From IMG/VR virus record IMGVR_UViG_2541047917_000011: DNA of 39,086 nucleotides; one strand, given 5' to 3'. Below the pieces are notes generated by a model. The model was given only the letters and a program-made list of their open reading frames with translations. It searched no databases and was not told the DNA's origin. The position numbers and the translations under genes are program-made. This document shows positions 3,096-39,086 of this stretch, piece after piece (the stretch's first letter is position 1; each line of letters starts with the position of its first letter). The DNA is from a virus (Duplodnaviria > Heunggongvirae > Uroviricota > Caudoviricetes).

Positions 3096-4246
3096 TTTTT
3101 CTTCTCCTTAATCACCGTCGATGTACTGCCATCCGGGTGATAAACCGTGAGTTTCTGAGTTTTTTGTTTTTTCCCTCTTGTGACTGGCCCCCGTGCCACT
3201 TCCAGCTCTGTGGTGTAGCCGCTGTTACGGTCAAACGCATGGCGGGCAGTGGTTATGAGCCATGGCCCGGATAACTGCCCAAAACCCACCAGTTCAATTT
3301 TGTTGCCTGCTGTCAGTTGAGGTGTTCCCGTCAGCGTCAGGGAGCCGTTCTGCTGGTATTCGTTATGTCTGGCCAGTGCTGAATCCGCTTTAATCCGGGC
3401 ACTGTCCGGGTCGCTGACGCGGCTGTTAACTTTAAGTGAGTCAGCGCTGGTAACCTTACCACCTTTGAGCTTTTTGTCGCTTTCACGGGTACCACCATCA
3501 GCTTCGTGGACGATCAGTTTTTTACTGCTGCTTTTCTGGTGTTTTACCTTTGCAGATTTATAGACCCGGTTGATGGTGTCACGCAGGGAAAAGCGGGCCA
3601 CATCCTGCGGTTTTAACTGCCTGACCGTCTCCTGACTGCGCAGTGTGGCCAGATGAGAAAAAATCAGCTGGTCACTGACCACTTTCACTGCATAACCATA
3701 CTCGCTGGCCAGCCGGCGCAGAAAACCCACGTCGGTTTCAGCATACTGGGTCACCCGGTCGATTCTGATGGACTCAATGCTGCCCACCAGTTTCAGCCGG
3801 TGCTTTCTGGCAATCCGCCCCGCAACAGCTGCCAGCGTGGTGTTCTCAAAACCACGGCTGGATTTAGTCCGCAGAGCACTGTTAACCGAGGTGGCCACCC
3901 CACGGATAGAAACAACGGAAGCGGGCGAACTCACTTCGATCTCGTCTATAGAGAACGTACCGCAGGACAGCAGCTTCTCGCCCTGATAGCCCATTTTCAG
4001 CGTCAGCGTGTCACCCTTGCCCGGATACCACTTATCCAGCCAGCGGCCATCGGTGTCGTCCAGCTCCACCTCAATGGTATCGGACTCATTTTTGATGTTA
4101 TCGCTCCAGGTCACACGGGTGACATAAGGCGCGATATCAGAGGTGATGTTTTTCTGCAGATACCACAGAGTGAACACCGGTGTCAGCACATCGCTGACGC
4201 CGGTTAACGCTGATGTGACTTGCGCAGTGCTGTTTATCTCAGCCAT
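3092..4246 (-). CDS. Tail/baseplate hub protein, late control D family (Mu P / P2 gpD-like)
   Basis: 384 aa, basic C-terminus, position after tape measure-U-X as in P2/Mu tails. Confidence 0.75.
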   Translation of the reverse strand: MAEINSTAQVTSALTGVSDVLTPVFTLWYLQKNITSDIAPYVTRVTWSDNIKNESDTIEVELDDTDGRWLDKWYPGKGDTLTLKMGYQGEKLLSCGTFSIDEIEVSSPASVVSIRGVATSVNSALRTKSSRGFENTTLAAVAGRIARKHRLKLVGSIESIRIDRVTQYAETDVGFLRRLASEYGYAVKVVSDQLIFSHLATLRSQETVRQLKPQDVARFSLRDTINRVYKSAKVKHQKSSSKKLIVHEADGGTRESDKKLKGGKVTSADSLKVNSRVSDPDSARIKADSALARHNEYQQNGSLTLTGTPQLTAGNKIELVGFGQLSGPWLITTARHAFDRNSGYTTELEVARGPVTRGKKQKTQKLTVYHPDGSTSTVIKEKKK

Positions 4247-4449
4247 GGGGCAATATCCTCTTCTGTACGGGCTTCTTCAGTCTCAATCACCGGGATCAGT
4301 AACAACAGCCCGGAGGGCAGCACCGGCGTGATGGCCACGTGAGGATTGGCGGCAATAATCCGGGGATAGCCCAGCGGGTCACCGTAGTACTGCCATGCCA
4401 GCGAATCCCAGCGCTCTCCGTCACGGGTAACATGTTCAAGAAACATCAC
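4234..4449 (-). CDS. Tail protein X (LysM-like, P2 gpX family)
   Basis: 71 aa with the GD..D.I...YYG...I.AANP...LP.G pattern typical of gpX; overlaps both neighbours. Confidence 0.6.
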   Translation of the reverse strand: MMFLEHVTRDGERWDSLAWQYYGDPLGYPRIIAANPHVAITPVLPSGLLLLIPVIETEEARTEEDIAPWLR

Positions 4450-5330
4450 ACACTCCTCGTCAGTATTCTGGCGGCCATTGCACTTAATCCCGGAGACATG
4501 CGGTTGAATGCTGTGCCGGCGGCGTTAAGCTGCCCGGAAACGGTATCCAGAGCACCTGCAATATTTCTTTTGTCCACACCACTCAGCGCAGACTGTGCCT
4601 GCTGTACATACGTGGCTGCTTCGCTGGCTGTTCTGGCCAGACTGATGGCATCGGGCATGGATTCAGAGAGTGCGTTAAACGCCGGAACACTTTTCCCCAG
4701 AGCCCCGGAGATATTACCCAGTCCGCTCATCAGCCCCGGCACACGGGTCAGTGCGACAACGGGGTTATCCTTCATTTTCTGTGTCACCCGAACGGCGCTG
4801 ATAGTGGTCTGGAGTACAGACTGCGCCTGTTTCGCATAGTTGACGCCGTTGCGGATGAACTGCGCCACCCCTGAAGGTGAAGGAATGGCACCGGAGACCG
4901 CCCCGACACCCGGGAGCTTCGTGCGTATTGCCGGTGGTTGCAGAGGATTTTTCGGATCACCGGTGTATTCCCGGAGAGACACGGTGGCACTGACAGCCAG
5001 CACGTTACCGGTGCTGTCTGTCTGCTCGCTGGTTGCGGTCACATCGGTAATCACGAACCAGCCACGATAGTCACCGTTGCCGAAGACCAGCGCCAGTGCC
5101 TGATGGGCTTTCATGGCTGTTCGCAGTCTCGCCAGCTCCACATCGGGTACACAATAATGCTGATGGAAAACCAGAGTTATCTGGATTTCGTCCAGCCTGT
5201 CGCCGACGAACTGCAGGCCAGGCTTACCCCCGATGCGGGCATGCTCCGCATAATCGACGCCGAACGTGGCCTCGAAGCCGTCCCAGTAGGTAATCAGCTC
5301 AAACTCAATATCACCCAGTACGGCAAACAT
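4446..5330 (-). CDS. Tail protein, GpU / DNA-circularisation N-terminal domain family (Mu N-like)
   Basis: 294 aa directly downstream of the tape measure gene (stop/start overlap at 5330). Confidence 0.6.
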   Translation of the reverse strand: MFAVLGDIEFELITYWDGFEATFGVDYAEHARIGGKPGLQFVGDRLDEIQITLVFHQHYCVPDVELARLRTAMKAHQALALVFGNGDYRGWFVITDVTATSEQTDSTGNVLAVSATVSLREYTGDPKNPLQPPAIRTKLPGVGAVSGAIPSPSGVAQFIRNGVNYAKQAQSVLQTTISAVRVTQKMKDNPVVALTRVPGLMSGLGNISGALGKSVPAFNALSESMPDAISLARTASEAATYVQQAQSALSGVDKRNIAGALDTVSGQLNAAGTAFNRMSPGLSAMAARILTRSV

Positions 5331-21809: not shown

Positions 21810-22160
21810 TTAAAGCCCCATCGCAACAGCCAGGCAGACCGCTGCAACAATCAGTGCACGGCGGATTAACGCAGCAGAAAACACCAGGTGAAGGCCGGTC
21901 TGTACCGGGAAACGCCCTTCAGCCATCAGCCTGTCGTCATGTTTCAGGTACTGACCGGGACGGGCTTTGGGGAAGAGCGAACGGTCAAGCCAGTAACCCA
22001 GCACTGCTGCCAGCGTGATGAGTGCCAGCTTGTAGATCACAACAGGCAGCTGCTGTGGTGAGACCAGAGCGATGGTGCCCAGCAACAGCACTGAGGTCAG
22101 CAGCCAGCCGCTGAGGCGAGGTTTTTTAACAGGGGGAATGAATTTTTTCAGGTTTTTCAT
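21810..22160 (-). CDS. Putative holin / lysis membrane protein
   Basis: About 116 aa with 2-3 predicted TM helices; ATG 22160 preceded by AAGGAGA; first gene of lysis cassette. Confidence 0.45.
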   Translation of the reverse strand: MKNLKKFIPPVKKPRLSGWLLTSVLLLGTIALVSPQQLPVVIYKLALITLAAVLGYWLDRSLFPKARPGQYLKHDDRLMAEGRFPVQTGLHLVFSAALIRRALIVAAVCLAVAMGL

Positions 22161-22290
22161 GTGTGTCTCCTTATCTGGTGGAGACAGCATCACAAATACA
22201 GGGCGCGAAGGATTTTAAAGCGCGTTAAGAGAGCCGGGGATACGGGATGTGCAGGATAAACGATGAATTATTCACAGAGGAGAATACGAT

Positions 22291-22767
22291 ATGACGCACA
22301 CACTGAATCCGGTCATCACTGTCACTGTGTCCGGTCCTGTGGGCAGCGGTAAAAGTTACGTACTGGCGCGGATAGAAGAGATGGTGAAACAGGAACTCGG
22401 AAACAGCGTCATTGTCGATGCTGCTGACGTGGAGAATGAGCGCCGTATGAATGGCGAAGATCTGACGACCTGGCAGAAGCCACGGGGTGGCACAGTGATC
22501 AGGCTGGAGGAATACACGGGACAGGGCCTGTTGTCATACGGCGAGGAGCGTATCTGTCGGACGAATGAGCTGCTGGATGTTATATGCCCCACGGGCCGGC
22601 AACCCTGGATACTGCCCGATGCACTGCATGCCACCATTGCGGCACTGATGACAGTTTACGATCAGGAGCTGCTCATGAAGGAGTTACGTAAACTCACCGG
22701 TCAGCCAACAGAATGTTGTTCGTCTCCGAAGTACGGCAAACAGGAAAACGCCCCGGATAATCCTTAA
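22291..22767 (+). CDS. Small P-loop NTPase / nucleotide-kinase-like protein of unknown function
   Basis: 158 aa; Walker A GPVGSGKS near N-terminus, candidate Walker B VIVDAAD; AGGAG RBS; only plus-strand gene amid minus-strand genes. Confidence 0.6.
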   Translation: MTHTLNPVITVTVSGPVGSGKSYVLARIEEMVKQELGNSVIVDAADVENERRMNGEDLTTWQKPRGGTVIRLEEYTGQGLLSYGEERICRTNELLDVICPTGRQPWILPDALHATIAALMTVYDQELLMKELRKLTGQPTECCSSPKYGKQENAPDNP

Positions 22768-22786
22768 GATACCTCCTGAACAGAAA

Positions 22787-22802
22787 CAGCCCTGAAGGGC
22801 TG
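22787..22802. terminator. Hairpin between convergent genes (P-loop gene and accessory operon)
   Basis: CAGCCC-tgaa-GGGCTG perfect stem; T-rich on minus strand and A-rich on plus strand. Confidence 0.45.
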
Positions 22803-22804
22803 CA

Positions 22805-23395
22805 CTAAAAAAAGAAGTGTATTATTGCCCAAACAGCTATAACGATGATTCCCAGCCCAAGAGCCGATTCTAACTTATCTTTGGCAGTCATTTTTACTGT
22901 TGTAGCGGGCGCAGGTAAGTCTTGCTGCTGTGGATTTTCTGTTAGTTGTTTACGAGAAGAAACATCGCCCCTGTTAGTTTGCTTCATGTTGATTACAGAT
23001 GCGTTATGGGCATTATCAGCAGCAATTGACTGAAGTTTTACAAAAGTTTTTGAATCTGTTTTAGCCAGAAGTAACCTATTTCCCGTAAACATTGCCTTAA
23101 AAGTGATAGTTTTTTTCGTCTTGTCCGCCGCACCAAGCAAACCTCCAATGACCAACCCTGCACCACCAAAGATTAATCCACCAAGCAAACCTGCGCCTGC
23201 CGCCTTACCTATACGGCTTTCCTCTTCACTATCCGCAAGTTCAATCGATAAAAGCTCTTCTTTCAGATTTAATACAATATTTTCAGGAAAGCCTTGTTTT
23301 GGTTTTTTGGCAAACACGATGGTACCGAACCCCATGCTTGCCCACCCTTTAGGAAAACTTCCTGCGATAACCTGAATCCCTGCCATGTTCATCAC
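22805..23395 (-). CDS. Membrane protein with glycine-zipper segment, unknown function
   Basis: 196 aa; GAGLLGGLIFGGAGLVIGGLLGA glycine zipper and C-terminal TM (LGLGIIVIAVWAIIHFFF); AT-rich. Confidence 0.5.
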   Translation of the reverse strand: MMNMAGIQVIAGSFPKGWASMGFGTIVFAKKPKQGFPENIVLNLKEELLSIELADSEEESRIGKAAGAGLLGGLIFGGAGLVIGGLLGAADKTKKTITFKAMFTGNRLLLAKTDSKTFVKLQSIAADNAHNASVINMKQTNRGDVSSRKQLTENPQQQDLPAPATTVKMTAKDKLESALGLGIIVIAVWAIIHFFF

Positions 23396-23476
23396 CTTTT
23401 ACATTAAAATTTCAGAACGCAGCATGATGCCGCCTTTGTCTTTTTTCTGATCCCATGGTAATTCAGCTGTTATTTT

Positions 23477-24463
23477 CTATTTAAGAATAAAACGGTATTT
23501 ACTGTCAGGAGTGCTTTGCTGATCAAGTAGCAGTGAACGACATGGAGCAGTCAAAACCCGAGCATAACTACCATCAGGGCTTATGTTAATGTAACAAACC
23601 TTGCCCTTAACACTATAATTTTCGGGGACGGATGCCTTTGCTGATACAGTAAATTTAAGGGTATGCCAGCCCGTTTTTTGCTTGTAGCTTGAAACCGAAT
23701 GGAAATCATCTGAGTACTTATTTAACCCTGGAAACATGCTGCGCAGTGCGGGGATGGAATCTTCTATTATTTTATCGTTGGTTTTAATGTTAAAAACGCT
23801 GGTTTCAGTAGAAGCTACTGCTTTGGCATTTCCCCATTTACCAGCGAACACAATCATTCCCACGAAAAATATTGCTACAAGAACTAACACTCCCCCCAAC
23901 ACTACTACATGAGGCTTCCGGCTTCTGGTTGGTACAGTTGCGACTGATTTTGCACCGCTTTCCGATGGAGGTGATAGAGTTTTACTCTCATCACGAATAT
24001 TCAGCAGATCATCAAAATAACCAAACACAGCCTGCAACTGCTCTTTGTCTAGGCCTTTAAGATGGGTTGTACCGAAATGCTTCAGACAGTATCTGTCACG
24101 GTCAAGACGATACCCAGGGTCAGTAAGCGCCATTATTTTGCTGACCAGAAGATTACAGTCCTTCATATTCTGGATCTGTTGTGCATATCTCTGAAGGATC
24201 TCAACCGCACCATGATAATCAGCCGCAGTCATTTCATTAACTGTTTTGGTATTAAGTTTCGTGTGGATCGTCATCCATAGCTCGCGCTTACTTTCCCCCA
24301 GATCAACCAATTCATCCATCAATCTGTGTAAATCGCGTTTTTGCAGCAACGAAATTGGTTGCTGGGCCGAAGGAAGTATGTCAGCAGAATAGTTATGAAT
24401 GGTAACATCACCGCTGACAACGTTACCCACATCCCCGTTAACTGTTTGCTTCTCTTTACTCAT
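23477..24463 (-). CDS. Single-pass membrane protein, unknown function, translationally coupled to repressor
   Basis: 328 aa; start ATG overlaps repressor stop (ATGA); N-terminal cytoplasmic domain, TM helix (VVVLGGVLVLVAIFFVGMIVFAG), C-terminal extracytoplasmic domain. Confidence 0.55.
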   Translation of the reverse strand: MSKEKQTVNGDVGNVVSGDVTIHNYSADILPSAQQPISLLQKRDLHRLMDELVDLGESKRELWMTIHTKLNTKTVNEMTAADYHGAVEILQRYAQQIQNMKDCNLLVSKIMALTDPGYRLDRDRYCLKHFGTTHLKGLDKEQLQAVFGYFDDLLNIRDESKTLSPPSESGAKSVATVPTRSRKPHVVVLGGVLVLVAIFFVGMIVFAGKWGNAKAVASTETSVFNIKTNDKIIEDSIPALRSMFPGLNKYSDDFHSVSSYKQKTGWHTLKFTVSAKASVPENYSVKGKVCYINISPDGSYARVLTAPCRSLLLDQQSTPDSKYRFILK

Positions 24464-24885
24464 CTTCTCTTGGTATTTTTGTTCATTATTCCACCTGTTC
24501 CTATGGTTACGTTACCTTTGATAACATTCCCCAGAACATCTCCATGAATAACCTGTTCCGCCCGTTCTCTGGAGGAGCCAGTAGTCAAGGCCGACAAAAC
24601 TGAACCTTTGACCTGTAATGGTGCCTGCCGGTAGTGCTGCAGTAACTCCATTTCATCACGTGATAAAGTTATACCTGATGACTCCCCGGTAAGAATGAAC
24701 TGTACATTGGCCCCAATTCTTGCAAAGGCTGCAAGTAACTCACCTCCGGGAACAGCAACCCCTCGTTCATATTTCCCCCACATTTCTCTTGAAACGCCAC
24801 AAAGGGCTGCTACTTCAGCCTGCTTGAGTGATAACCGCGAACGCTCAGCTTTGAACCGCGACGCGCAAAGAGAATCAAAATTCAC
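24460..24885 (-). CDS. Prophage repressor, XRE-family HTH
   Basis: HTH_XRE pattern (RLSLKQAEVAALCGVSREMWGKYERG); GTG 24885 with GAGG RBS preferred over ATG 24921, which would bury the early promoter inside the gene. Confidence 0.65.
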   Translation of the reverse strand: MNFDSLCASRFKAERSRLSLKQAEVAALCGVSREMWGKYERGVAVPGGELLAAFARIGANVQFILTGESSGITLSRDEMELLQHYRQAPLQVKGSVLSALTTGSSRERAEQVIHGDVLGNVIKGNVTIGTGGIMNKNTKRR

Positions 24886-24895
24886 ATAAACCTCA

Positions 24896-24924
24896 TTGAC
24901 AATGAGAACAATAGTTCTCATAAT
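24896..24924 (+). promoter_or_regulatory. Early promoter: -35 TTGACA (24896-24901), 17-bp spacer, -10 CATAAT (24919-24924), with 20-bp palindromic operator ATGAGAAC-AATA-GTTCTCAT (24902-24921) in the spacer
   Basis: Read directly from sequence; sits 48 bp upstream of the ner-like ATG and between divergent repressor and early genes. Confidence 0.55.
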
Positions 24925-33325: not shown

Positions 33326-33705
<380 letters not shown>

Positions 33706-33893
33706 AAGTCGTTCCCTCAGGAAGAAGTGATGAGTGACATTTTTCACAGCATCCAAACAATTCTATTTCATCGTTAGCCCTTGTCCTGTAAGGCAATTGC
33801 CTTAACACGCCCGCTATTCATCCTGCCGAACGTAACCGAACGCGCCGGATACATGAGCGGGGTTATCGAGTCGTTAGATCGAGGTATCCGGTT

Positions 33894-35099
33894 TTGAGCA
33901 AGACACCACTGACAGCAAAGGCCATAGACGCCGCACAACCAAAGGACAAGCAATACAAACTCACCGATTCACTGACGCCCGGCCTGTTTTTGCTGGTGCA
34001 TCCCAACGGATCAAAGTATTGGCGATTCAGGTTCTGGATGGACAAAAAAGAGTATTTGCAGGCTATTGGAGTGTACCCGCTAATCAGCCTCAAGGAAGCC
34101 CGTAAACGCGCTACAGAGAGCCGATCTCTGATTGCTAATGGAATTAATCCAGTGGAAGAAGCACGCAAGGAAAAAGCCATTGATGCGCTCAACATGGCGG
34201 CAGGTTTTAAGACGGTAGCGGAGGACTGGCTGGCTACCAGGGTCAGCGGGTGGTCAGAGTCCTACACGAAACAGGTTAGATCGGCACTGGAAAAAGATGT
34301 TTACCCCGTGCTGGGGAAGCGGTCAATTGTCGATATAACGGCCCGTGACGTGCTGGCATTGCTTCAGAAGAAAGAGCGTACCGCACCGGAACAAGCCAGG
34401 AAGCTACGCCAGCGTATCGGGGAGATCTTCAAATTTGCCGTTATCACCGAACTGGTTAACCGAAATCCGGTTGCAGATCTGGACTCGGCCCTGAAAGCCC
34501 GCCGACCAGGTCACAATGCATGGCTGCAAATTAGTGAAATTCCGCCCTTCTACAAAGCCCTTGAGAGAGCCGGGAGCGTTCAGATTCAGACGGCAATACG
34601 TTTGCTTATATTAACGGCATTAAGGACCGCAGAACTGCGTTTAATGCGCTGGGAATGGGTAGATCTGGAGTCAGCAACAATCACCCTACCCGCTGAAGTC
34701 ATGAAGGCCCGCCGACCGCACGTAGTCCCGTTATCCCGGCAGGCGGTCGAGCTATTACAGGACCAGTTTACCCGCAGCGGATACAGTGCTTTCGTCTTTC
34801 CGGGTCGATTCATGGATAAGCCATTGTCAGCCAGTGCGATACTGAAGGCGCTTGAGAGGATCGGCTATAAAGCCCTTGTCACTGGTCACGGATGGCGCAC
34901 AACATTCAGCACCGCACTTAACGAGTCCGGCAGGTACTCACCAGACTGGATCGAGATACAACTGGCCCACGTTCCAAAGGGAATCAGGGGAGTTTACAAT
35001 CAGGCGGCCTACCTGAAGCAACGACGAGCAATGATGCAATCGTACGCGGACGCCATTGATTCAATACTGGCTGGTGACGGCAATCCGCTGGAACCGTGA
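33894..35099 (+). CDS. intZ: Tyrosine site-specific integrase, P4 family
   Basis: 401 aa; N-terminal DUF4102-like arm domain, C-terminal HxxR and catalytic Tyr; TTG start; symbol assigned from genomic context, not from a search. Confidence 0.85.
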   Translation: MSKTPLTAKAIDAAQPKDKQYKLTDSLTPGLFLLVHPNGSKYWRFRFWMDKKEYLQAIGVYPLISLKEARKRATESRSLIANGINPVEEARKEKAIDALNMAAGFKTVAEDWLATRVSGWSESYTKQVRSALEKDVYPVLGKRSIVDITARDVLALLQKKERTAPEQARKLRQRIGEIFKFAVITELVNRNPVADLDSALKARRPGHNAWLQISEIPPFYKALERAGSVQIQTAIRLLILTALRTAELRLMRWEWVDLESATITLPAEVMKARRPHVVPLSRQAVELLQDQFTRSGYSAFVFPGRFMDKPLSASAILKALERIGYKALVTGHGWRTTFSTALNESGRYSPDWIEIQLAHVPKGIRGVYNQAAYLKQRRAMMQSYADAIDSILAGDGNPLEP

Positions 35100-35345
35100 A
35101 CTATAAGGCCGGATTCGTCCGGCTTTTCTTTCGCCTTACTGGTATAAAAGGTTAACAGGTTACACAACCTATCACTATTTTATCCTGTTATCCTTTTATA
35201 CAGCTATACCAATAAAATCAATGATTAAGCCAAGTTTGTAATAAAAAATCCGGGGATCGAAAATAGGATCAACGCAACAAAAAGCCCGGAAGGCCGCTAA
35301 CCAATCCGGGCGATATGGGAAACAAGTAAAAAGGAGAAATCCCAC

Positions 35346-36119
35346 ATGAATATTTTACCAACCGCCTACGCCCCACGGCAAGGCGAATCACTCGGTAAAC
35401 ACAGCCTTCAGAAAATCGACGCGATCCCGGAAGAAGTACGGAGCGCCATTGATGATGGCCTGAATGATATCCGCTTTAATGGTTATCGCTGGGAATGCAA
35501 CGCCAAAACAGGCTGGGCGCGTGTATCACCGATTTCATCACCTGCCGATGCAGAACCTGAATCACCAGAACAAAGCCAGGCAAACGCCCGCGCTGACTTC
35601 CTGGCGTTACAAGGTGAGTATTTATCAGTCACGCAGGAAACTAAAAGCGAGAAGAAATCAGCTACTGATATCGTGAACGAGCTACGCAGTAAGGCCGCTA
35701 AAACTTCGCAGACAGCACCACAGCAGGAAGCGCCGGAAGAACCGGAACAAGCGGAAGCCATGCAGGATAAAGAGACACAATACCAAACGGAAGAAAAAGG
35801 AATTTATTGCAGCTATGTCTGTTTGGGTGCGGCACGTAAGGCATTTGTCAGAAGTGGTTGCGAGAATAAAGCTAAAGCTACAGCCTGGAGCGTATTATCC
35901 AGCATTGCATCAGCAGCAAGAAAGCAGAATGATGGATCTTATGTATCTGAAGTTTGCCAGGCAAAAATAGCTGATGAATGGGGCATGAATCGCCGCACCG
36001 TAATTCGCCAGATGAAAATCCTGGTTGAGTTAGGACTCATTGAGCCATACGGGGAATATGTTATTGGTCAGCACGCAAGAAAATACAGAATGCTTTTTCA
36101 GGTCGAGAACGCAAGATAA
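35346..36119 (+). CDS. Winged-helix DNA-binding protein, candidate iteron-binding replication initiator
   Basis: 257 aa, acidic linker, C-terminal HTH (IADEWGMNRRTVIRQMKILVELGLIE); four iterons begin 65 bp downstream. Confidence 0.45.
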   Translation: MNILPTAYAPRQGESLGKHSLQKIDAIPEEVRSAIDDGLNDIRFNGYRWECNAKTGWARVSPISSPADAEPESPEQSQANARADFLALQGEYLSVTQETKSEKKSATDIVNELRSKAAKTSQTAPQQEAPEEPEQAEAMQDKETQYQTEEKGIYCSYVCLGAARKAFVRSGCENKAKATAWSVLSSIASAARKQNDGSYVSEVCQAKIADEWGMNRRTVIRQMKILVELGLIEPYGEYVIGQHARKYRMLFQVENAR

Positions 36120-36137
36120 CGACTAAAACGCATCAGT

Positions 36138-36167
36138 GGGTCACCTAAAATTGTGGCCCTTTTTATT
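36138..36167 (+). terminator. Intrinsic terminator after rep-like gene
   Basis: Stem GGGTCAC / GTGGCCC (one G-U pair), 8-nt loop, followed by TTTTTATT. Confidence 0.5.
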
Positions 36168-36183
36168 ACTTAAACCATCAACA

Positions 36184-36293
36184 GACGTGTGACATTTGGG
36201 ACACAGGTACGTGTGACATTTGGGATACAGGTCAGAGGGTGACGTGTGACATTTGGGATACAGGTCAGGCCATGACGTGTGACATTTGGGGCA
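36184..36293. repeat. Four direct iterons ACGTGTGACATTTGGG(A/G)YAC..., spacing 24/33/33 bp
   Basis: Core TGTGACATTTGGG found at 36188, 36212, 36245 and 36278. Confidence 0.8.
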
Positions 36294-37201
36294 CACATAG
36301 TATGAGATCTGTATATTCCTTTTTTCTTTTTAAGAGAAAGTAAGAGGCGCGCATTTTAAATGAACACAAACAAGCAACAAGCCCAGCGGACCTTCGGAAG
36401 ACTTCGAGCAATCGCCAGCTCAAAAGACGGTCTGGCAGTGATGGTTATCATCGACAGCTTTCTGAGCTACCGCACAGACACACAGCAGCAGTAAGCAAAC
36501 CGAATGGAAAGCAAAGCGCAAAAAACTCACTCACTGTAAAGCCGATGGGTTTTATCGCGTATACAGACCAGACAGGAAACAGCAGCAAAGCAGCGTATAG
36601 CCAGGTGCAGACAGTACCATCACACGACGCACAGCAGGCTGAGGTGACCACTCAAGCAAGTTTATCCCCGCCGCCGACCACCGCAAACCATCCTGATAGT
36701 GCCAAATTCGAACGGAGTGCTACCTTAAACGCGATTAACACACATAAGCGCTACACTTGCTTACCTGAAAACTTCACAGCGTCACAGCGCGTTTTAGACA
36801 CGTTAAAATCGATGCGATTTCATTAATTTTTCAGCCATCCAGAAATCGGCTTCATATCAAGCCGATTCATCAGCGCGGCGTCCTGCATTGCAGGTTATCG
36901 AAAGAATCAATAACTTTCGCCAATGGCGAAAGTTAAACAATCAATAAAGTCCAGAGTTGGACTATTCACCCAAATTTGGGGCAATGAAATCACACAGATC
37001 CTGCCAGGCTATTCCATCCACCACACAGAACGCTGAGATCTGATATTACCGCCGCACCATTCCACGCCAGACGAATCAAAACAGGCTTACCCTTCCAAGT
37101 GGATAGCTAAAAATTAAGGCTGTCAGAATGCGTTATATTGCGTTTAAACGGCATCGAATTTTAATGTGCGCAATGGTGCCAGATTACAGGCAAAAAAAAT
37201 C

Positions 37202-37230
37202 CCGCCGGAGAAAGCGGGGAAGTGAAATGA
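37202..37230 (-). terminator. Strong rho-independent terminator on minus strand
   Basis: Minus strand reads CCCGC-tttctccg-GCGGG followed by eight T. Confidence 0.6.
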
Positions 37231-37452
37231 ATCGTTGTAGTTATAGATCACATTTTGAGTAAGGGTAACCAGCCCTTGAGTAATATTATCCCTGCATTAC
37301 GTGAGATGCGCAATTATTTTTTGCTAATTAAAAGTTTTGTAAACATTACAGAATCTCCCCTTTCACTATATGGTAAAAGATGTGAAACAGGGACAGGAGG
37401 AATATAATATTAAGTATCAACAGTAATGTTGGCCTTTAATTTTATTCAGGGC

Positions 37453-37495
37453 GCGGTGAGGGTTTTCTCCATATTTTCCTCACCGCTACTTTTTG
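37453..37495 (+). terminator. Hairpin plus T-tract immediately upstream of alpA RBS
   Basis: Perfect 9-bp stem GCGGTGAGG / CCTCACCGC with 16-nt loop, then TACTTTTT. Confidence 0.45.
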
Positions 37496-37505
37496 AGGTG
37501 AGAAC

Positions 37506-37697
37506 ATGAATGATAGCGAATTAATGACGGTTAACGAGGTAGCAGCTTTATTCGGCGTTACCCGTCGGACAATATTCCGGTGGATGAACAAGATTAAAGG
37601 CTGGCCCGTCCCGGTCAGTCCGATTGGCTCAAGAATTAAGTTTATCCGATCTGAGATTTTGGAATTCTATAAAAACAAAGGCGCTCGCCACCAATGA
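37506..37697 (+). CDS. alpA: AlpA-family phage/island transcriptional regulator (excisionase-like HTH)
   Basis: 63 aa; MTVNEVAALFGVTRRTIFRWM motif typical of AlpA; GAGGTGA RBS. Confidence 0.75.
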   Translation: MNDSELMTVNEVAALFGVTRRTIFRWMNKIKGWPVPVSPIGSRIKFIRSEILEFYKNKGARHQ

Positions 37698-37773
37698 AAA
37701 CAGCTACTGAGATTATCAAATAACCTATTGATTTAAAAAGCTAGCTACCGCAATTTCTGAAGGAATAGGCAGC

Positions 37774-38100
37774 ATGAAAATCAAAGCAAACACAATTAAA
37801 GAAATAACATCAATCAAAATAAAAGGAGCAGATGCCATGCATTCATTAGACAGTTATTTTCAGCGCACGACAGCCCCTAAATCAGCCGCCCAGGAACGCC
37901 GTGAGGAATTCCAGGAAAAAGTGATGCGTTCTGCTGATTATATTGCGGACAAGTTCGTGGAAACGGTTCGGCCACTTGTTGATGAAGTAGCTGATAAACT
38001 TCAGTCTGAAATGCCGGAAGACATGGAAGGCACTGCAAAGGCGCGACTCCTTTTTGAATTAAGTCGTCGTTTCGGCGTGTCAATAAGCACTTTTAAATAA
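37774..38100 (+). CDS. Hypothetical island protein
   Basis: 108 aa ORF, AT-rich. Confidence 0.35.
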   Translation: MKIKANTIKEITSIKIKGADAMHSLDSYFQRTTAPKSAAQERREEFQEKVMRSADYIADKFVETVRPLVDEVADKLQSEMPEDMEGTAKARLLFELSRRFGVSISTFK

Positions 38101-38117
38101 TCGGAGGAGGAAAGACA

Positions 38118-38660
38118 ATGGACGCATTTGATGTACTGACAAACAAAGGCGATGAACTGGTAGCACAGCGTGATAAAACCGCCAACGAAGGGGAACGCGC
38201 ACTGTTAAATAAGCAGATTAAAGCGATCCGTATGGCCCAGTTTAAATTAATCAGCAATGAAGTTATCGAAATAATTAAACCGCAGATCCCACAAATCGTT
38301 GCTGACGCTATTAAAGCCGCCGGACTGGAGAAACGCATTGCCGGGCTGAAAACGAACGCAGAGAAAATGGAGATGCACAAACAGAGCGGTGCTCCGACTA
38401 CGGATGAGTACTTCTCACCGGATGCTGAGTTTATGGCGCAGGTTGAGGAACGTCTGGGTAGCTGTCTCACCGAGGAACAGCGTCGCTATTTTGATGGAGT
38501 GGATAGTTCGGCAGGTATTGACCTGAACTCGTATTTCGGTCGTGAAATTGAGCATTTTGATGCCGCCCCGTCTATGCCGGAGCCAGAACCAGAAATGGCC
38601 GCCGATCCTGAAGCTGAGCAACGGAAACGCGTATTCAATGCGATAGGGATTCGGTACTGA
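38118..38660 (+). CDS. Hypothetical island protein (acidic, coiled-coil)
   Basis: 180 aa ORF with GGAGGA RBS. Confidence 0.45.
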   Translation: MDAFDVLTNKGDELVAQRDKTANEGERALLNKQIKAIRMAQFKLISNEVIEIIKPQIPQIVADAIKAAGLEKRIAGLKTNAEKMEMHKQSGAPTTDEYFSPDAEFMAQVEERLGSCLTEEQRRYFDGVDSSAGIDLNSYFGREIEHFDAAPSMPEPEPEMAADPEAEQRKRVFNAIGIRY

Positions 38661-38711
38661 TCGGATAAAAGAAAGCCGGGAATTACCCCGGCTGACTTAA
38701 CAATGTGACCA

Positions 38712-39086
38712 ATGAACAAATCGGACAAGACAAACAGGATAAGCAGTCTCGAAACAATGTTCGGGAACTATATTAGCACAAGTCCGGAGAAAATCATCAT
38801 GTTGGCACTACGCATCATGCAGGGCATCGCTAAGACCCTCGCAGAACATGTCTTAGACCTGAAACATTCGCCACTGAGCAAACAGGCCATGAAGCGCCAA
38901 ACGCTTCGTCTGTGGGCTGAATATTCGCTTGGAACTATCAATAAAATCATCGATATGAAATCGGGGCCGAGCAACCAGAGCGCGGAGGAAATGGAGTTCA
39001 TCAGGCGTTTAATTCTCATTCGCAGAGACATTCATAGCCAGTTACACAGCGTGGGAATCGATATTAATGATGGGACGGGCGATTAA
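38712..39086 (+). CDS. Hypothetical island protein
   Basis: 124 aa ORF ending with TAA at the window end. Confidence 0.4.
   Translation: MNKSDKTNRISSLETMFGNYISTSPEKIIMLALRIMQGIAKTLAEHVLDLKHSPLSKQAMKRQTLRLWAEYSLGTINKIIDMKSGPSNQSAEEMEFIRRLILIRRDIHSQLHSVGIDINDGTGD

Follow-up and report, generated by a model that had tools for sequence, protein, structure and literature searches.

The C-terminus of a putative prophage repressor (QVIHGDVLGNVIKGNVTI) and the N-terminus of the membrane protein encoded directly downstream of it (QTVNGDVGNVVSGDVTI) carry a common short G/N/V-rich motif. Both genes lie in a 39,086-nucleotide stretch of DNA (IMG/VR virus record IMGVR_UViG_2541047917_000011), referred to in the following as the window, which is a segment of an Escherichia coli chromosome carrying a transposable prophage of a type that we take to be BcepMu-like. 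As the initial annotation of the window had noted, the repressor gene is followed on the minus strand by two open reading frames (ORFs), one of 328 codons (ORF328) and one of 196 codons if read from a GTG (ORF196), and the TGA stop codon of the repressor sits within the ATGA that starts ORF328. The shared motif, which that annotation had not seen, is the most informative feature of the locus. We put at about even the chances that the repressor and ORF328 constitute a conserved two-gene immunity module in which a motif-linked membrane sensor controls the repressor, with ORF196 as a separate element. Judged by sequence, the module would be present in BcepMu-like and some P2-like prophages.

The repressor consists of an XRE-type helix-turn-helix (HTH) at residues 22–68, a helical linker, the C-terminal motif and a basic tail, NKNTKRR. 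When the repressor was compared with ORF328 by BLASTP, 11 of 21 aligned positions were identical, with an E-value of 3e-4 for this single comparison. Residues G10, G13, N14, V15, V16, S17, G18, V20 and I22 of the ORF328 motif did not vary among 18 homologues with identities as low as 44%, making the motif the most conserved segment among them, and the C-terminal motif was nearly invariant among repressors that are only 65–67% identical overall. Glycine, valine, asparagine, glutamine and isoleucine make up about 60% of the residues in the motif segments, and proline 0–1.8%. Different codons are used at seven of the 11 residues that are identical between the two motifs, showing that the match has been kept at the protein level and is not the product of a recent DNA duplication; these synonymous differences were the reason for rejecting the idea that the motif is shared through recent gene conversion or duplication. 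A short basic tail like that of the window repressor (24460–24498) follows the motif in most of the surveyed loci (e.g., GGSKGKK, GDVKSKE and DYHEKE) and could be a membrane contact, a DNA contact or a degradation signal.

The two genes are tightly linked. ORF328 overlapped the repressor stop codon by 4 nt in all six enterobacterial loci compared (numbered L002, L003, L006, L007, L009 and L011), in which the repressors are HTH proteins of 140–161 residues. More distant partners, with 22–36% identity to ORF328, lay between −4 and +16 nt from such a repressor in prophages of Pseudomonas, Serratia and Obesumbacterium, and relatives directly downstream of such repressors were also found in some Betaproteobacteria. 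An exhaustive search with a hidden Markov model (HMM) yielded 114 relatives of ORF328; many are proteins of 185–270 residues with the N-terminal motif, a domain resembling the N-domain of the flagellar protein Flk and a C-terminal transmembrane (TM) helix, while others are stand-alone periplasmic domains. For the survey, the genomic contexts of six distant members were combined with 53 IMG/VR loci collected by means of three sub-alignments, giving 68 loci with a partner gene, and in 58 of these an ORF of at least 100 residues ended no more than 30 nt upstream of the partner. The named hosts were Escherichia, Salmonella, Yersinia, Serratia, Morganella, Pectobacterium, Obesumbacterium, Pseudomonas, Chitiniphilus and Silvimonas. 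A count of motif genes by regular expression was discarded as a statistic because many variants were missed.

The tails of the upstream HTH proteins belonged to the same motif class as the heads of their partners. In the window, the class is GDVxGNVxxGxVTI. The repressor tail of L030, GIKVSGSGHRVAGRDYHEKE, and its partner head, MSGIELDGDQNRVAGRDYVEINL, belong to the class NRxAGRDYxE, and both contain NRVAGRDY. Loci L022–L027 combine the tail GVGQQFNGPVGSVTSGDVVN with the head SxQQFHGxVxQVAAGDIKNF in the class QQFxGxV...GD[IV]xN (QQFxGxVxxVxxGD[IV]xN), and L044–L049 combine the repressor tail KQTFHGSVGQSVAGNVTNKSGVTFNVG with the partner head MSQDFHGDVGQAAAGDINNYGVSISL in the class FHGxVGQ...GxxxN. 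The motif GDVGNVVSGDVTI and NRVAGRDYxE are members of different classes. For 22 of 25 representative pairs, the local alignment score between tail and head was reached by at most 3 of 2000 composition-preserving shuffles, with z-scores of 4.4 to 12. Among 23 pairs below 70% identity, the scores of cognate pairs summed to 1130, compared to 813 ± 55 after permutation, a sum reached in none of 100,000 permutations, which disregard shared ancestry. The score matrix separated into clear blocks by motif class.

The motif and ORF328 were also lost together. In ST131-type E. coli (L004 and L005), the repressor has only 112–118 residues, a deletion of about 30 residues removes exactly the motif region, and neither ORF328 nor ORF196 is present. 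Homology to the window is lost in these prophages after 22756 and regained at 24919/24920, a single base ahead of the ATG of the repressor, indicating that the block 22757–24919, comprising the repressor, ORF328 and here ORF196, was swapped as a unit. From these alignments, the repressor and ORF328 are one exchanged immunity block, while ORF196 occupies a recombination-prone slot. The initial annotation had considered both downstream genes acquired cargo, whose presence or absence in related prophages should be compared. For ORF196 this description stood, since it is exchangeable and the slot between holin and repressor is variable. It did not stand for ORF328, which is co-inherited with the repressor type across genera and was absent exactly where the repressor lacks the motif.

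The N-terminal motif is not confined to proteins like ORF328. It was also found on membrane proteins with bodies unlike Flk, encoded behind motif-bearing repressors, including Zn-ribbon proteins and multi-TM proteins (Table 1). Some of the non-Flk-like proteins with the motif have an extended N/G/Q-rich repeat, e.g., GGNTHLELNIHGDNQGNINLGNQIF.

Table 1. Positions of the features discussed; coordinates refer to the window except where a surveyed locus is named.
Feature	Coordinates	Strand	Basis
Putative prophage repressor, 153 aa	24460..24921	-	Pfam HTH_31 E=4.7e-7, HTH_3
Repressor C-terminal motif, aa 122-141 (EQVIHGDVLGNVIKGNVTIG)	24499..24558	-	BLASTP vs ORF328
ORF328, 328 aa, membrane partner of repressor	23477..24463	-	ORF call; phrog_10002 full-length match
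ORF328 N-terminal motif, aa 5-22 (KQTVNGDVGNVVSGDVTI)	24398..24451	-	BLASTP, homologue conservation
Flk-N-like helical cytoplasmic domain, ORF328 aa 31-158	23990..24373	-	NF007987 match; pLDDT >90
Single TM helix, ORF328 ~aa 185-207	23843..23911	-	Kyte-Doolittle aa 181-213, peak 3.05
C-terminal alpha/beta domain, predicted periplasmic, ORF328 aa 221-328	23480..23803	-	pLDDT >90
ORF196	22805..23395 (196 aa, GTG 23395) or ..23386 (193 aa, ATG 23386)	-	phrog_12025 full-length match
Terminator-like hairpin	22786..22803	-	7-bp stem, 5 G-C pairs, T-rich tail
Truncated P-loop gene, 158 aa	22291..22767	+	phrog_3787 positions 1-157 of 242; RefSeq 'ABC transporter ATPase'
Zn-ribbon (CPQC...CMHC) + 2 TM helices with N-terminal motif	L070 786-1265; L071 2501-2980		
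Multi-TM proteins with N-terminal motif	L069 2501-3004; L073 2501-2890		

ORF328 has 24 close homologues with 44–82% identity, all in Enterobacterales. An AlphaFold2 model made from the alignment of close homologues showed two confident domains, with a predicted local distance difference test score (pLDDT) above 90, and a TM helix at residues 189–207; residues 1–30, including the motif, had a pLDDT of about 41 and were modelled as disordered. The sequence RSRKPH lies on the N-terminal, cytoplasmic side of the TM helix. Residues 19–147 matched positions 14–143 of the NCBIfam model for Flk, NF007987, with an E-value of 2.9e-12, but at 46.6 bits the match was far below the cutoff of 353 bits for this equivalog family. 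Precomputed matches to PF27202 Flk_N, several of them weak, were present on ORF328 homologues and distant relatives. By these profile matches, the helical domain is homologous to the Flk N-domain.

Residues C290 and C308 are invariant in the C-terminal domain in the homologue alignment, and stand-alone versions of the domain, of 130–200 residues, were found by the HMM search. In two of the surveyed loci the domain is encoded as a separate lipoprotein, with signal peptide and lipobox (L070 1276–1674; L073 2097–2501), by a gene that adjoins the gene for an N-motif membrane protein. This arrangement supports a periplasmic location for the domain as well as a functional link by gene fusion; in ORF328, two proteins that exist singly in other loci are fused. 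No convincing relative of the ORF328 domains was found among solved or viral predicted structures. The profile searches proposed in the initial annotation did not place either protein in a functional family: Pfam, NCBIfam, PHROGs and PADLOC scans of ORF328 and ORF196 yielded nothing beyond the sub-threshold Flk match and function-less PHROGs. No solved structure or literature report matched the repressor–ORF328 module, whose members are annotated as hypothetical or, from their similarity to Flk, as "flagella biosynthesis regulator", and the module was not described in the literature searched on Flk with prophages or repressors, BcepMu repressors, glycine-zipper exclusion and membrane sequestration of phage repressors.

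Taken together, the co-inheritance, the tight coupling, the matched motifs, their co-variation by class and the joint loss are best explained if the two termini pair directly and homotypically. The motifs of repressor and ORF328 would then join through β-strands or possibly by amyloid-like assembly. Upon a signal from the envelope or periplasm, ORF328 might capture, cluster or template the repressor, which would end repression and induce the prophage with no need for SOS cleavage. To our knowledge, repressors of transposable (Mu-like, BcepMu-like) phages do not have a LexA-type self-cleavage domain, and a Pfam scan found no S24 peptidase domain in the window repressor. The induction decision of Mu-like and BcepMu-like prophages is poorly understood, and a membrane protein tied to the repressor by a co-varying motif would provide a concrete route from the cell envelope to the lysis–lysogeny switch. 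The proposed outcome, in which a repressor is taken off the DNA by capture or aggregation rather than by RecA-dependent cleavage, hypothetically resembles the action of Qtip, which aggregates the cI repressor of phage VP882, and of PtsG, which sequesters the Mlc repressor at the membrane; those systems, however, have no common terminal motif and no translational coupling of partner and repressor.

The closest likeness to the shared motif was found in amyloid signalling. In the E. coli abortive-infection (Abi) system Bab/Agp, which is located in prophages, the BASS11 motif is present at the C-terminus of one product and the N-terminus of that of the adjacent gene, and the N-motif of the sensor templates the C-motif of the effector as an amyloid (bioRxiv 10.1101/2024.11.07.622273). 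Fungal HET-S/NWD2 and the bacterial Bell/NLR pairs with BASS motifs are likewise C-motif/N-motif pairs encoded by neighbouring genes (bioRxiv 10.1101/2020.01.06.895854). Like these pairs (Bab/Agp, Bell/NLR BASS1–10, HET-S/NWD2), the repressor and ORF328 have a motif of about 20 residues at the C-end of one product and the N-end of its neighbour's, with copies that agree within a pair, match more closely within than between pairs at the class level and differ between classes; the motifs are G/N/Q-rich with hydrophobic alternation, and the bodies attached to them are modular. What was not found is the usual distribution of roles. Instead of a pore-forming death or membrane effector, the C-motif here belongs to an XRE-type HTH repressor, and the N-motif belongs to a small membrane-anchored Flk-N-like protein rather than to an NLR/STAND, TPR-PIN or other multidomain sensor. 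Here, moreover, the pair is set in a prophage immunity operon.

Since the sensor carries the N-motif and the effector the C-motif in Bab/Agp, the same orientation would make ORF328 the sensor and put the repressor under its control. By the same analogy, the pair could be a prion-like induction switch, in which clustering of ORF328 nucleates its N-motif and templates conversion of the repressor motif to an aggregated, inactive amyloid state, although we think this specific version unlikely. If true, it would constitute an SOS-independent and possibly self-propagating path from an envelope signal to prophage induction. Templated assembly would also be the first amyloid-type signalling to act on a transcription factor instead of a death effector, and it would extend such signalling to transposable and P2-like phages of Proteobacteria, widening the range in which motifs of this kind should be sought.

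A number of points weigh against a motif-linked sensor module. The role of the repressor is derived from its position and fold, and the physical pairing, the direction of the signal and its outcome are all deduced from sequence comparison. The permutation test takes no account of shared ancestry, and the co-variation holds at the level of classes: inside the large FHGxVGQ class, cognate pairs were no more specific than non-cognate ones. The loci were gathered through the partner gene and not through motif-bearing repressors. In L072, the repressor motif is intact beside a partner pseudogene (2501–2611) with a stop after 37 codons. Some P2-like loci have an unrelated gene of 86–90 codons between the pair (L020) or a repressor further off, and no motif-bearing HTH protein was found within the 5.4 kb of L074. 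Furthermore, constitutive 1:1 co-expression of a repressor and its own inactivator would require an additional control step. The apparent exceptions to adjacency were mostly resolved: in L018, a motif-bearing HTH protein is encoded elsewhere in the locus, with the tail IQVAGDLGQNVTGNVNIKGG to be compared with the partner head HQVAGDVGMVSHGTVTINGG, and in L073, the gene that intervenes between repressor and partner encodes a lipoprotein. L072 represents a natural partner-loss variant.

The initial annotation had pointed to superinfection exclusion, abortive infection or another anti-phage function for the two downstream genes. In phage lambda, the cI-rexA-rexB exclusion operon is co-transcribed with the repressor, and by analogy ORF328 and/or ORF196 might be lysogen-expressed exclusion or Abi proteins; in a motif-based variant of this proposal, sensing would fall to the repressor or its tail, and the membrane protein would act as effector. 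We regard this, variant included, as doubtful but worth serious consideration. As in lambda, the genes lie directly 3′ of the repressor in the same operon, with a membrane product; here both products are predicted membrane proteins, as the initial annotation had stated, with one hydrophobic segment in ORF328 and a glycine zipper and a C-terminal segment in ORF196. The repressor operon adjoins a variable slot that holds other morons (Dam, DUF2441) in relatives, ORF196 itself behaves as an exchangeable moron, and Bab/Agp, the one such motif pair in E. coli that has been studied by experiment, is a prophage-located Abi system. However, there was no sequence or profile similarity to Rex, and the search for defence systems gave no significant match: in PADLOC-DB 2.0, the best hit of ORF328 was a candidate model, PDC-M19B, with an E-value of 0.014, and ORF196 had none. 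Pfam and structure searches detected no pore-forming or Bell/HeLo-like domain, and Pfam and PADLOC scans found no NACHT, NB-ARC, TPR or Bell domain. The Rex proteins and cI have no common motif, whereas ORF328 co-varies with one repressor type, to which it is fixed across genera, unlike variable cargo. Moreover, the known amyloid pairs have the C-motif on the effector and not on a DNA-binding repressor.

The remaining explanations are less probable still. The motif could be a common degron or docking peptide that is recognised by host ClpXP, Lon, FtsH or a chaperone and coordinates the turnover of both proteins. In phage Mu, degradation of the repressor by ClpXP is under the control of its C-terminal tail. 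Like many recognition tags, the motifs described here are terminal and disordered in the model, and nearly all repressors have a basic tail after the motif. With a conserved host factor, however, a single constant motif would be expected, while several classes exist that are always matched within the pair, and motif-less repressors that appear functional occur in E. coli; we therefore find a third-party tag decidedly improbable. It is also conceivable, if very unlikely, that ORF328 brings about a lysogenic conversion by acting like Flk on the flagellar type III export switch, and thereby on motility or receptor display, with the motif serving co-localisation or being incidental. Flk, a tail-anchored cytoplasmic protein, inhibits the flagellar secretion-specificity switch (PMC13344023), and ORF328 resembles it in having a homologous, cytoplasmic helical N-domain (E = 2.9e-12) with a TM anchor on the C-terminal side; most distant relatives of ORF328, of 185–270 residues, are truly tail-anchored, as Flk is. 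Yet ORF328 adds an N-terminal motif and a periplasmic domain of 108 residues, is phage-borne and repressor-linked, and falls far short of the family cutoff (46.6 versus 353 bits). A Flk-like activity would leave the strict linkage to the repressor type and the co-varying motif unexplained, as well as the presence of the N-motif on bodies that are not Flk-like. Finally, we give hardly any credence to the motif being an evolutionary relic, left as a functionless duplicated junction peptide when one membrane-anchored HTH regulator was split in two. Membrane-anchored HTH regulators of such layout exist, e.g., RodZ-like proteins, and both motifs flank the gene junction, but a relic would decay independently in each gene. 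Instead, among homologues that are 44–67% identical, conservation of both proteins is highest in the motif, the two copies differ at synonymous sites, and they keep matching while the class changes.

ORF196 was found to be a different kind of element from the repressor–ORF328 pair, and the single two-gene cassette of the initial annotation does not hold: ORF196 assorts independently, being absent from L002, L003, L006, L007 and L009 and present without ORF328 in Citrobacter. There (L012–L015), an ORF196 homologue with 71% identity directly follows a different, 121-residue repressor. The relatives of ORF196 were always located in the repressor operon of BcepMu-like prophages, whatever the repressor type. 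In L002 (E. coli 2014C-3075), the repressor and ORF328 are kept and three other genes take the place of ORF196. The first ≈95 nt of ORF196 and the spacer to ORF328 remain there at ≈3325–3420, equivalent to 23300–23395 of the window, a deletion scar indicating that ORF196 was once present. The slot holds a DUF2441 gene and a 203-codon gene in L003 (JNEC-KY202), and ORF328 is followed by a 249-codon gene and Dam in L006 (Yersinia), by Dam alone in L007 (Serratia) and by small ORFs in L009–L011 (Salmonella).

At its left side, the slot is bordered by a truncated P-loop gene on the plus strand (Table 1), which is full-length, ≈247 codons, in L002, L004 and L005. This remnant and the end of homology at 22756 mark the breakpoint at which recombination has bounded the variable slot on the left. 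The terminator-like hairpin that the initial annotation had placed at the end of the unit was recovered at 22786–22803, between convergent genes, with a folding energy of −13.1 kcal/mol (z = −2.0); 8 of 200 shuffled sequences folded as well. This gives moderate support to the hairpin closing the repressor operon as a terminator. It is located inside the segment 22757–23299 that is unique to the window in comparison with L002, and thus travels with ORF196.

RefSeq and PHROG put the start of ORF196 at ATG 23386, which is the more probable start. In a Kyte–Doolittle analysis, the protein has a glycine-zipper segment at residues 62–87 and a C-terminal TM segment at residues 171–193. Its predicted layout comprises four strands in a β-rich N-terminal part, the GxxxG-type glycine zipper, two strands, a helix, a low-complexity linker and the C-terminal TM segment. 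The AlphaFold2 model, made from eight sequences, was unusable, with a pLDDT of 36. Weak precomputed matches to PF27000 PH_gly_zipper were present on four ORF196 homologues (P0026, P0032, P0033 and P0036), a family with which the predicted secondary structure is compatible. ORF196 itself belongs to a narrow family: in a profile search for distant relatives, 15 proteins had E ≤ 0.001, and only three proteins were added. One protein, P0147 of Burkholderia savannae (174 residues), shares with ORF196 the N-terminal ≈120 residues (57% identity), which comprise the β-rich part and the glycine zipper, but continues with a SHOCT domain in place of the linker and C-terminal TM segment. ORF196 is an independently recombining membrane moron that is probably expressed in the lysogen, adding a further candidate for exclusion; with low confidence, our best guess is that it is a membrane-acting exclusion or abortive-infection factor.

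Expression of both genes in the lysogen, as the initial annotation proposed, is plausible from their position in the repressor operon. A simple promoter scan of the window found no promoter for the repressor. A strong sigma-70-like site was present on the plus strand at 24896–24924, with TTGACA, a 17-nt spacer and CATAAT (11 of 12 matches); it points to the early operon and overlaps the region of the repressor start codon, which suggests face-to-face divergent promoters.

The low G+C content on which the initial annotation had based its idea of cargo was borne out in value (0.429 for ORF328 and 0.423 for ORF196, compared to 0.536 for the window and 0.55–0.58 for the holin and transposase genes), but it is not confined to the pair. 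At 0.459, 0.481 and 0.462, respectively, the repressor, ner-like and IclR-like genes are AT-rich as well, so that the composition marks the whole immunity and regulatory region; the proposal that low G+C marks only the cargo was rejected for this reason.

In the rest of the prophage, Pfam and PHROG scans identified an rve and phrog_310 transposase and a Holin_2-3 holin, consistent with the BcepMu-like context, and the RefSeq annotation includes ExeA-family, Gam, Mor, DUF935 and Mu-type morphogenesis genes. The late arm is encoded on the minus strand and extends to the left from the holin gene (21810–22193), with the Holin_2-3 holin, an SLT endolysin, spanins, Mu-type head genes and P2-type tail genes. 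The early arm, from which the repressor diverges, runs rightward from 24972 and comprises a ner-like HTH gene, an IclR-like HTH gene, DUF3102, the DDE transposase, an AAA+ ExeA-family gene, Gam and Mor. The right end of the prophage is at ≈33.4 kb; from ≈33,397 to 39086, the window consists of host DNA (eutB, eut/CPZ-55 intZ region) that is present in nearly all E. coli. An identical prophage is inserted in gspL in strain M9682-C1, which, with its location in the eut/intZ region in the window, is consistent with transposition. E. coli AR_0015 is another strain with the identical prophage. The 2.3 kb around the repressor and its two downstream genes were found at 100% identity, at varied chromosomal positions, in ≈97 of 5426 complete E. 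coli genomes, i.e., the exact allele is present in about 2%, and prophages related to that of the window were found in 638 genomes. Relatives are present in Salmonella, Yersinia, Serratia, Pectobacterium, Pseudomonas and Chromobacteriaceae-like bacteria.

In three P2-like prophages, of Chitiniphilus, Silvimonas and an IMG/VR contig (L018, L020 and L074), a protein of 86–90 residues (MEH.Y..E.RP.FD...) is encoded directly upstream of the N-motif partner, with a 4-nt overlap in L018 and L074, and it may be a third component of the module in P2-like versions. L074 has two N-motif genes, including one at 3939–4484 that is not Flk-like.

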